A DNA stretch of 40,884 bases. It comes from a virus. The translations under genes were made by a program, and so were the position numbers. Position 1 is the first letter of the stretch, and the number at the start of each line of letters is the position of its first letter. This document shows, piece after piece, positions 2,793-9,495 of this stretch. The DNA lies in the UHGV virus genome UHGV-2008032. The stretch is one strand, 5' to 3'. The notes below the pieces were generated by a model that was not told the origin of the DNA, did not search any database, and saw nothing but the letters and a program-made list of their open reading frames with translations.

Positions 2793-3956
2793 TCACGCGA
2801 TATTCACCAGTTCAGCAAAAGCGCCTTGTGCCATATTTGTGCCATTCCCCGCCAGAAATGAGTCGATTTGCATGGCATGCTGCGTCAGGTGATTCGGTGC
2901 CAGATGGGCATAACGCTGTACCATCTCGATACTTTCCCACCCGCCCATTTCCTGTAGCGCACTGAGTGGCACGCCGGACTGTACAAGCCAGCTTGCCCAG
3001 GTGTGCCGCAGGTCATGGAAGCGGAAATTTTCTATTCCCGCCCGCCTTAACGCTGCTCGCCATGCCGTGTTAGCATCAGACCGCATTTTGCGCACTGCCT
3101 TTGTTCTCGTTCCATCCGGGCGAACGGATGATTCAGTGTGAACAAAGACCCACCGGTTATGTTTCCCCAGCTGCTCCCGCAGCACCTTACAGGCCGATTC
3201 GTTCAGGGCGACCCCAATCGCCCTTCCTGCTTTCGCGTCCTCGGGGTGAATCCACGCGACCTTCCTCTGCATATCAATTTGTGACCACTCCAGATCGGTG
3301 ATGTTCGACCTGCGCAGCCCCGTCGCCAGTGCAAAAATAACAACTGGCTTCATATGCTCGGGAAGTTCCCGGATCAGGTTCGCCGCTTCCTCTTTGGTTA
3401 GCCAGCGAATACGCTTATTTTTCGGCACCGGGCATTTGATGTTCGGCGCCTTGGCTATCCATCGCCATTCGTTGGCCGCACATCGTAACAGCGCCCGGAT
3501 GAAAGCAAGGTGCGTCGCCTTCGTCGCCAGCGACGCTGGTTTATCCTTAAATTCAGGAACCGGCTTACCTCTTCGCAGCAGGCTGTCCCGTTTCGCCTCC
3601 CAGTTCATTCGATGTTTGCGATTAACCATCGAACTCACCGCCGACAAGATCCTGTCTTCCGTGATTGCTGACAGGTCCATTCCTTTGAAGTGCATTCTCC
3701 AGAATCCGATCCGGCTTTTGTCATCGTCCAGGCTTTTCTTGTGCTGCTTTTCGTTAAGCCAGCGAACGCACGCTTCATCGAACGTTCTCGGCTTAAACTC
3801 ACCCATCTTATCAACTCGCCATGCTTCAGCTTTCAGCTGATCATAGAGCTCCTGCGCTTGCCTTTTGTCCGTTGTCCCAAGAGACCGTCTAATTCGACTT
3901 CCACCAGGCGTAACGAAGTCGCAGTGCCACGTACCGGCACGTTGTTTGATTGACAT
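2793..3956 (-). CDS. int: Tyrosine integrase
   Basis: 387 aa; N-terminal arm-binding-like domain; C-terminal HDLRHTWAS ... VQRYAHL catalytic motifs; adjacent to att core. Confidence 0.9.
2827..2841 (+). repeat. Arm-type repeat TGTGCCATATTTGTG (P' arm, inside int 3' end), tandem with TGTGCCATT
   Basis: Exact copy of 2609..2623 on the other side of the core. Confidence 0.5.
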
Positions 3957-4180
3957 GCTTTAACCTCCTGCACATCAACCGCATTCACCGCGCTATTGTG
4001 TCTCACAGACTTAAGCGCCGCAATGCAGTCTGACTTGCAAATGCGATATGGGCTTTTAGGTTTATCTGGATTTATCTTTGCGGCCTGAAGTCGTCCACTT
4101 CGTATCCACTGCGTGATAGTGCCTTTGTCTACCTTCAGATACGATGCTGCCTCTTCACGAGTGAAGATTTCTTCTTCCAC
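3833..4180 (-). CDS. xis: Excisionase-like HTH DNA-binding protein
   Basis: GTG start at 4180 with GGAG 6 nt upstream; helix-turn-helix [25 protein letters not shown]; 3' end overlaps int start by about 120 nt. Confidence 0.5.
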
Positions 4181-7585: not shown

Positions 7586-8293
7586 TTATGCCGCCTGTTT
7601 TAGTTCGTTAACTCTGATGTTCATTACCTGAACGCATTTAGCCTGCGCATCCTCATTGCCAGCCATTAATTGCCAGTCATGCTGATAACGTTCTATGAGT
7701 TTTTTCTTGTCAGTTTCTGTTGATGCATAATCGCTGAAGTCTTTCAGGATTTGTTCGCAGTCAACCGATGGAGATTTCTGGTTGGTATTTTCTGGTGATG
7801 GTTTGTTATCTGATGCTGGGATTGCCCAGCCCGGCAGCGATGGAGGGAGCCAGTAAAATCCTGTTCCATCCTTCAGTTTTGCCCTGTGCCACCCCTGTTT
7901 TTTATCGGGAGATGTTTGTGCGAAACCTTCCTCAAGGTTATACAGATACCGACCGATTCCCCACTGAACGGCAGCGCGCTTCATTGCACCGGAACGACCA
8001 CCTTTGACGGCTTCTACCTGCGTGTTTTCAGCAGCATCCCATTTGGTTACCCATTCGGAATCAATCTTTATTGATATGCCGCATTCAACGCCGCCGTTGT
8101 TGGGAATATCGCGGTATTCATTGCGCCATCCTGCTTTGCCACAAACATCGTCAAGGCGTTTCATGATTGCCCGGTTCGTAACATAAGCCAGCACCATAGC
8201 CCACACCTTGCCATCGCGTGTTTTACCGCTTTGCTGTATTCGCCATTCGATATCTTCAGGGCAGAATGGCTCATCGAATTTGTTCAAATCCAT
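7586..8293 (-). CDS. Single-strand annealing recombinase, Rad52/Sak-like
   Basis: Motifs ...GKAGWRNEY...SGAMKRAAVQWGIGRYLY resemble Rad52-family annealing proteins; immediately upstream of ssb. Confidence 0.55.
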   Translation of the reverse strand: MDLNKFDEPFCPEDIEWRIQQSGKTRDGKVWAMVLAYVTNRAIMKRLDDVCGKAGWRNEYRDIPNNGGVECGISIKIDSEWVTKWDAAENTQVEAVKGGRSGAMKRAAVQWGIGRYLYNLEEGFAQTSPDKKQGWHRAKLKDGTGFYWLPPSLPGWAIPASDNKPSPENTNQKSPSVDCEQILKDFSDYASTETDKKKLIERYQHDWQLMAGNEDAQAKCVQVMNIRVNELKQAA

Positions 8294-8392
8294 AATTCAC
8301 CTCAGAATGGACATGGCCCAAGGAAATAACGCTGGTTTAATACTTCGACTCGGGACAAATTAAGGCATACCCGCATTCCTTCGCGGTCACCA

Positions 8393-8551
8393 TTATGGCG
8401 ATACCAGAGAGCTTTCTGCGTGTACATGCGTCTCTGTAACTTGCTCTCCTTCACTGTGGTTGCAAGTGACATGAATATCTCCTTCGTTACCGATTAATTC
8501 TTTCATCTGACGAATGAATTCTTCGTCTGACCAGTTATCTGTAAAACTCAT
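8393..8551 (-). CDS. Small hypothetical protein (52 aa)
   Basis: Hand-translated; ATG overlaps upstream stop (ATGA); below the ORF-track size cut-off. Confidence 0.3.
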   Translation of the reverse strand: MSFTDNWSDEEFIRQMKELIGNEGDIHVTCNHSEGEQVTETHVHAESSLVSP

Positions 8552-8700
8552 TTCCTGCGATACCACGGAATGTTGATCGCTGATTTCATCGCTTTATTTG
8601 CTTCAAGCCACATTTTGGAATCACCAATAAATCTGGCTATTACTGCTTTGTTCTGTGCAGCACGAAGCATCTGGTGATTGATGGCTATTTCATTGCGCAT
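8548..8700 (-). CDS. Small hypothetical protein (50 aa)
   Basis: Hand-translated; GGAGG upstream; stop overlaps next start (ATGA). Confidence 0.3.
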   Translation of the reverse strand: MRNEIAINHQMLRAAQNKAVIARFIGDSKMWLEANKAMKSAINIPWYRRK

Positions 8701-8819
8701 AACGCCTCCAGTTGTTTCTTTGCTGCTCTGATTAATTGTTTAACTCGGCGTGATAATTCAGATTCGTGCGGGTAGAAAGCGGACATGACGCCGCTACCCG
8801 CGAGCTGAAAGTGCATCAT
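8685..8819 (-). CDS. Small hypothetical protein (44 aa)
   Basis: Hand-translated; AGGAG 6 nt upstream of ATG. Confidence 0.3.
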   Translation of the reverse strand: MMHFQLAGSGVMSAFYPHESELSRRVKQLIRAAKKQLEALCAMK

Positions 8820-8902
8820 GGGTAACTCCTTATATTTGATTGCATAACGAAAACGCCTCGAGTGAAGCGTTATTGGTATGCGGTAAAGCCGCGCTCAGGC
8901 GG

Positions 8903-9408: not shown

Positions 9409-9495
9409 TCAATAGTCGTAGTCATACGGATAGTCCTGGTATTGTTCCATCACATCCTGCGGATGCTCTTCGAACTCTTCAAATTCTTCTTCCAT
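9409..9495 (-). CDS. Very acidic micro-protein (28 aa, MEEEFEEFEEHPQDVMEQYQDYPYDYDY)
   Basis: Hand-translated; GAGGTG 4 nt upstream of ATG. Confidence 0.3.
   Translation of the reverse strand: MEEEFEEFEEHPQDVMEQYQDYPYDYDY

Follow-up and report, generated by a model that had tools for sequence, protein, structure and literature searches.

Layout of the region

The window, that is, the whole stretch of 40,884 nucleotides which we analysed, is taken from the virus genome UHGV-2008032. On its minus strand, between the gene of a small acidic protein and the gene of a single-strand annealing protein, we find cIII, kil and two further small reading frames which we call ORF3 and ORF4 (Table 1). A sequence-only reading of this DNA had proposed three minus-strand ORFs of 44, 50 and 52 amino acids at this place, linked to each other by ATGA overlaps, equipped with Shine–Dalgarno (SD) sequences and explaining a gap of about 600 bp. 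The three ORFs are present with exactly the limits that were claimed for them. The ATGA linkage holds for kil and ORF3 (8548–8551), whereas cIII and kil are joined by an overlap of 16 nt (8685–8700, ATGCGCAATGAAATAG). Convincing SD sequences precede ORF1 (AAGGAG at 8826–8831, −8.8 kcal/mol) and ORF2 (GGAGG at 8704–8708, −9.3 kcal/mol), but the one of ORF3 is weak (−4.3 kcal/mol). The gap does contain genuine small genes, but the three do not fill the interval 8294–8902 completely. A fourth gene, ORF4, had been overlooked and occupies the remaining 100 nt or so.

Table 1 Genes and features in and around the cIII–kil region of the window
Feature	Position	Strand	Matches and remarks
Rad52/Rad22-type single-strand annealing protein, 235 aa	7586..8293	−	PF04098, phrog_1097
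ORF4, 56 aa	8302..8472	−	phrog_1723; absent from the original finding
ORF3, 52 aa from ATG	8393..8551	−	phrog_2123
kil (ORF2), 50 aa	8548..8700	−	PF06301, phrog_2055
cIII (ORF1), 44 aa	8685..8819	−	PF08134, phrog_550
Terminator-like hairpin (AACGCTTCACTCGAGGCGTT and T-rich tail)	8852..8871	−	between the 82-aa acidic gene and cIII
Acidic anti-restriction/Ral-like protein, 82 aa	8903..9151	−	phrog_14587

A segment of 1 kb shows 100% identity with Escherichia phage ECP1 and 93–99% identity with HK97, HK106, HK022, HK446, Sf6 and H-19B, in which cIII and kil are annotated. Matches to the segment are found in 1116 of 5426 complete E. coli genomes. The identity with ECP1 is limited to the cIII–kil segment and the window is otherwise not ECP1. 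For the first 25 kb of the window the best phage cover is mEpX2, which nevertheless accounts for only 42% at 94.5% identity. Thus, the window is a different, mosaic lambdoid (pro)phage which has this segment in common with ECP1.

Neighbouring genes

The hairpin upstream of cIII has a counterpart in HK97, where a putative terminator is annotated at the equivalent site. The acidic protein next to it has a pI of 4.3 and matches phrog_14587 with an E value of 2.2e-48. In relatives including ECP1 it carries an anti-restriction/Ral-like label; a Pfam scan of the protein gave no Ral hit. In the same operon we also noticed a micro-ORF (9409–9495, minus strand) for a peptide of 28 residues which is extremely acidic and aromatic (MEEEFEEFEEHPQDVMEQYQDYPYDYDY) and which is the hypothetical protein ECP1_058 in ECP1.

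On the other side of the region, the ORF of the annealing protein begins at position 8293 with the SD sequence GAGGTG. From its N-terminus onwards the 235-residue protein matches PF04098 (E = 5.6e-25) and phrog_1097 (E = 4.4e-129, residues 1–235). In the ECP1 record (KY979108) the gene instead starts at an internal ATG which corresponds to position 8197 of the window rather than 8293 and yields a protein of 203 amino acids (3504–4115). We further compared the C-terminus of the window protein with that of P22 Erf (locus L088, 755–1372) and of two other loci (L261 and L264). The Rad52/Rad22-type protein and two ERF-family types have nearly identical C-terminal stretches of about 55 residues (...ILKDFSDYA..KKKLIERYQHDWQL...NIR.NELKQAA). 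As different N-terminal domains carry one near-identical C-terminus, there appears to be domain-level mosaicism inside the annealing gene. Another observation concerns the phage SSB (7070–7585, minus strand), whose C-terminus runs 15 residues past the DDDIPF motif. In bacterial SSBs this motif normally forms the extreme C-terminus, the partner-binding tip.

cIII and kil

The product of ORF1 matches the HK022-type CIII family PF08134 with an E value of 2e-30 (104.7 bits; Pfam gathering cut-off 25), its residues 2–38 being aligned to positions 1–37 of the 37 profile positions, and phrog_550 with an E value of 2.6e-13. Its amino-acid sequence is 100% identical to CIII of HK97. Similarity to the lambda CIII family PF02061 is distant only (E = 0.17), as expected of the HK022 class. 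Within the pL operon the gene has the N/ral region on one side and kil on the other, in the same order as in HK97 and Sf6. As judged by its sequence, ORF1 is CIII of the HK022/HK97 type. We could not detect any difference to this class, the gene of which is found at the same place, after a terminator and directly before kil. The class, comprising HK022, HK97 and H-19B, has been described explicitly together with the mode of action of lambda CIII, an oligomeric, amphipathic-helix competitive inhibitor of FtsH which protects CII (PMC1838920). By homology to lambda CIII, ORF1 would be an inhibitor of the host FtsH protease.

Equally clear is the match of ORF2 to the Lambda_Kil family PF06301 (E = 1.7e-20; 72.6 bits, cut-off 27.6) and to phrog_2055, which covers all of its residues 1–50 (E = 3.1e-35). 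PGAP names the protein "host cell division inhibitory peptide Kil". The gene differs from HK97 kil by four nucleotides, and among 30 haplotypes nearly all polymorphisms are synonymous and at the third codon position. ORF2 is Kil according to these comparisons. Kil of lambda and HK629 stops the assembly of the FtsZ ring in a ZipA-dependent manner and requires its helix-turn-helix core for this (PMC3961180, PMC11762379). Its homologue in the window is therefore expected, by homology to lambda Kil, to be a peptide inhibitor of cell division acting on FtsZ. Both cIII and kil are textbook genes known for a long time; in this sequence class they are contained in the HK022 GenBank record X16093, and PMC1838920 cites them from Oberto et al. 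1989.

The conservation in related phages, on which the earlier proposal had been made to depend, is indeed found: cIII and kil occur in hundreds of relatives and the ORF3 family is encoded in at least 583 IMG/VR stretches.

ORF4, a gene overprinted on ORF3

ORF4 lies in the +1 frame relative to ORF3, with which it has 80 nt in common, and its end is 8 nt away from the start of the annealing-protein gene. It has a strong SD sequence of its own (AAGGAG at 8479–8484, −8.8 kcal/mol) and matches phrog_1723, the family of HK97 gp42 and Sf6 gp29, in full length (E = 9.4e-36). The protein is basic (pI 10.0) and predicted to fold into a hairpin of two helices (pLDDT 75.8).

For the analysis of codon positions we used 70 distinct haplotypes from 131 loci which can be aligned without gaps. 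In the part belonging to ORF4 only, 27 of 42 variants fall on codon position 3. The variants of the overlap likewise fit ORF4, with 10 changes synonymous in ORF4 versus 3 in ORF3. Homologues with 30–38% identity are present in prophages of Salmonella, Citrobacter, Kosakonia and Enterobacter, and these are full-length, including the N-terminus which is encoded in the overlap. On account of the codon-position pattern and of these distant full-length homologues, ORF4 is certainly a gene, so far as this can be read from sequence comparison.

The family is small; an exhaustive profile search returned 32 representatives at E ≤ 0.001. Its genomic position is strikingly constant. In all 58 related loci (58/58) the ORF4-like gene lies 7–8 nt upstream of the gene of a strand-annealing protein, which is of the Rad52/Rad22 type or belongs to one of two types of the ERF family, P22-type Erf among them. 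The junction to the annealing gene has the conserved sequence TGAGGTGAATTATG; the upstream neighbours of the ORF4-like genes vary. When the predicted structure of ORF4 was searched with Foldseek, neither PDB nor BFVD yielded a hit at E ≤ 0.001. The exhaustive profile search had also returned long proteins matched in several stretches, which suggested a TPR/Sel1-like repeat. We rejected this reading: Pfam scans of the long proteins returned noise or low complexity only, and Foldseek had no hit.

Coding status of ORF3

ORF3 matches phrog_2123, the family of HK97 gp42.1 and Sf6 gp30, with residues 1–52 on profile positions 1–52 of 52 (E = 6.6e-42). It is 100% identical to the product of Sf6 gene 30 and is found in the same synteny, after kil and before a gp42/gp29-like gene. 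In 186 loci the frame is hardly ever interrupted. ORF3 is acidic (pI 4.4), and the structure prediction gives a helix at residues 9–20 and disorder for the remainder (pLDDT 58.7). With an alternative GTG start at 8566 the protein would have 57 amino acids. Counting against ORF3 are the weak SD sequence, which is an AGGAA abutting the ATG, and the observation that most ORF4-like genes of the Salmonella clade have no ORF3-like partner.

In the aligned haplotypes, eight of the nine variants of the ORF3-only part are at codon position 3 of ORF3. We note that 29 nt of this part served as the search pattern and that two of the variants are there, at pattern-free positions; outside the pattern it is six of seven variants, with p of about 0.007 by our own binomial estimate. 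The C-terminal 27 residues behave differently and show 19 nonsynonymous versus 3 synonymous changes in the frame of ORF3. In a divergent ORF4 allele the ORF3 tail ...ESSLVSP is changed to ...AGVNVSPEGRS, while ORF4 is conservatively substituted. Because of this pattern of substitutions in the 70 haplotypes ORF3 looks like a gene with a short conserved core. The core would comprise the first 25 residues or so, and the tail looks like a by-product of overprinting ORF4. The idea that the ORFs represent true small genes within the early-left operon can thus be upheld for cIII, kil and the ORF3 family, but in ORF3 the coding-type constraint is confined to the first half.

The beginning of ORF3 recurs in several contexts. 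Three unrelated genes precede ORF3 in different phages, namely kil, a cIII-like gene of 56 amino acids and a gene of 54 amino acids, and its ATG forms an ATGA overlap with the stop codon of each. The core MSFTDNWSDE(E/T)FIR.M starts four sequence types, one of 52/56 amino acids, one of 35 (HK140), one of 60 (SPN9CC) and a variant beginning with MSIADTWSDE. At the nucleotide level, codons 1–16 (8504–8551, 48 nt) are the same in ECP1-type and HK140-type phages (locus L085, 1201–1308), and the next 27 nt contain 14 differences. Since 48 identical nucleotides are followed by such abrupt divergence, the region is also a mosaic recombination junction inside the coding sequence. In the HK140-type phages ORF3 is followed by an ORF of 103 amino acids and RecT, in place of ORF4 and the Rad52-type protein.

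As a cause of the very low diversity in the 5′ region of ORF3 we considered an RNA element. This was rejected, as an Rfam search of the 5′ region gave no match and its predicted RNA folding was nothing unusual (z = −0.32).

Public annotation

The public records are inconsistent with respect to ORF3 and ORF4. In the GenBank record of ECP1 (KY979108, 3229–3399) the homologue of ORF4 is labelled "cIII protein", the true cIII is "hypothetical" and ORF3 is left out. PGAP knows ORF3 as WP_059320584.1, but many PGAP annotations omit it, and ORF4 is absent from both PGAP records that we checked (0/2). None of the four peptides is covered by an NCBIfam model, and our literature searches on HK97 gp42 and gp42.1 found nothing relevant. 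The label "recombinase", which both small families carry in PHROG-derived annotation and also in RefSeq, is unsupported. The practical value of our analysis is annotation clean-up.

Discussion

We suggest that the region is the ordinary cIII–kil segment of a lambdoid early-left (pL) operon, behind which a recombination module begins. For this explanation as a whole we estimate a probability of about 0.88. Gene identities, conservation and overlap geometry are direct observations; the function of the segment would follow from them in these steps. Transcription of the minus strand would start at pL and pass through an N-like antiterminator, the anti-restriction-like gene and the terminator-like hairpin. 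CIII would, as in lambda, competitively inhibit the host FtsH, so that CII is stabilised and lysogeny favoured. Kil, a helix-turn-helix peptide as the lambda homologue, would disrupt the FtsZ rings. Translation of ORF3 probably starts by termination–reinitiation at the kil stop codon (ATGA), that is, by translational coupling. The conserved part of ORF3 would form a short amphipathic acidic helix with W-S-D-E-E-F-I and could serve the strand-annealing protein as an Arf-like accessory. ORF4, translated from its own strong ribosome-binding site, would be a basic helical hairpin with a presumed accessory role in recombination.

It could be argued that the ORFs have arisen by chance in a spacer which does not code for protein, and the window in fact contains many ORFs of at least 44 amino acids, 4.5 per kb with both strands counted. 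The arrangement found here is, however, rarely produced by shuffling the region. Three or more ORFs of this size on the same strand arose in 25 of 5000 shuffles (0.5%) and a coverage by ORFs of at least 85% in 14 of 5000 (0.3%), so the arrangement is unlikely to be due to chance. Together with the hits to curated families, the synonymous bias of the substitutions and the conservation across hundreds of phages and over 1000 E. coli genomes, this leaves practically no room for chance frames, which are already refuted for ORF1, ORF2 and ORF4. A different proposal would be that ORF3 and ORF4 are one gene, which is separated in the window by a frameshift error or read by programmed +1 frameshifting. 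Here HK97 has to be considered. Its record (AF069529) contains two extra nucleotides which fuse both frames to the 83-residue Gp42.1, with Gp42 arising from an internal start, whereas the window has the common unfused form. The extra nucleotides are a C and a G, 5 nt apart (around 8418–8424 of the window; locus L003, 2331–2582), and are either a sequencing artefact or a change specific to the strain. Fused proteins of 81–82 amino acids are also found in the protein database (P0001–P0008), one of them (P0001) on 36 contigs. But each of the database fusions joins the frames at a different position. This argues for sporadic indels or assembly errors and not for a conserved product. Among the 70 haplotypes from the 131 gap-free loci and all other loci that we collected, HK97 alone has the fused form. 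Moreover, ORF4 has a strong SD sequence and a start of its own, and its N-terminus is conserved as protein sequence in comparison with relatives of only 30–38% identity. A prfB-like +1 slippery motif was not found by inspection of the ORF3 stop (CCA TAA T, 8393–8400). As we found neither a conserved fused product nor a slippery motif, programmed frameshifting of the prfB kind was rejected, and we consider a single gene very improbable altogether.

More has to be said for the view that ORF3 is without function and that its open frame is incidental, the 5′ part being merely the leader of ORF4 and a boundary at which modules recombine. This part indeed carries the AAGGAG ribosome-binding site of ORF4, and the 48 nt common to ECP1-type and HK140-type phages end in a mosaic junction. 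The diversity of the ORF3-only part is far below that of kil or ORF4, the SD sequence of ORF3 is weak and its tail unconstrained, ORF3 is missing upstream of most ORF4 genes of the Salmonella clade, and its annotation varies between records. On the other hand, the six of seven variants at codon position 3 outside the search pattern are a coding signature, and the ATG retains its overlap with the upstream stop codon behind three different genes. Of 141 unique sequences almost all keep the frame open, as do four divergent sequence types, which have the W-SDE-FI core and the hydrophobic pattern in common even where the DNA differs. Neither an unusual RNA structure nor an Rfam hit points to a leader element. 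We therefore regard a non-functional ORF3 as improbable and retain the reading of ORF3 as a gene with a short conserved core.

The content of the region is already known, and the genes which the sequence-only reading took to be missed have long been annotated in relatives. This includes the ORF3 family, which is annotated in Sf6 and HK97. The discovery value is accordingly small: cIII and kil have been on record for a long time and the pair ORF3/ORF4 is contained in the genome records of HK97 and Sf6. Of modest interest are the two small proteins heading many lambdoid recombination modules, in particular the ORF4 family, which is linked to strand-annealing proteins and may be a recombination accessory factor.

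Comparison with known systems

Phage Sf6 shows the identical layout, its genes 32, 31, 30, 29 and 28 having the same order, sizes and overlaps. According to the Sf6 records, gene 32 is cIII, gene 31 is kil, gene 30 encodes 52 amino acids ("similar to HK97 gene 42.1"), gene 29 encodes 56 amino acids ("similar to HK97 gene 42") and gene 28 a 235-residue Erf-like protein. Lambda itself is built differently, with ea10 located between cIII and kil, whereas in the window as well as in HK97, HK022 and Sf6 kil starts 16 nt inside the end of cIII.

The head of the recombination module can be compared with P22 Arf, which aids homologous recombination and is not essential for it (PMC12315714); the stimulation of Erf-dependent recombination by Arf is attributed to Poteete et al. 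1991, as cited in PMC12315714. Arf and ORF3 are both small and acidic (47 amino acids and pI 4.05 versus 52 amino acids and pI 4.4). P22 arf lies between kil and erf, and ORF3, too, comes after kil where the recombination module begins. Arf begins with MQHEFSDEEFI and shares [F/W]SDEEFI with the N-terminus of ORF3, which has WSDEEFI. The similarity seen by BLASTP is this motif of seven residues (E = 0.013). With hhalign, the ORF3 family and Arf are aligned over 20 columns centred on SDEEFI with a probability of 31% (E = 5e-4), and the Arf family phrog_2445 matches ORF3 only at E = 0.037 over 22 residues. A Pfam scan of ORF3 at E ≤ 1 gave no hit, the Arf family PF17585 included. Given the shortness of the motif, the 31% and the missing PF17585 hit, we use "Arf-like" for ORF3 as a working hypothesis and not in the sense of family membership. 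With this understanding, ORF3 would most likely support the downstream strand-annealing protein as an accessory factor in the manner of Arf. The arrangement is not quite the same, since P22 arf is directly coupled to erf, whereas in the window ORF4 separates ORF3 from the annealing gene.

It is thus ORF4 which holds the slot of Arf before the annealing gene, yet the two are not homologous (hhalign probability 0.2%). With this value we also rejected the idea that Arf is a fusion protein whose N-terminus is of the ORF3 type and whose C-terminus is of the ORF4 type. As ORF4-like genes adjoin the genes of strand-annealing proteins from two Pfam families with a common C-terminal domain, ORF4 may be the positional and functional counterpart of Arf. 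The most far-reaching version of this idea is that translation of both ORF3 and the overprinted ORF4 yields accessory factors of the strand-annealing protein; we put it forward tentatively and hold it to be somewhat unlikely. In that case ORF4 would be a widespread functional counterpart of P22 Arf.
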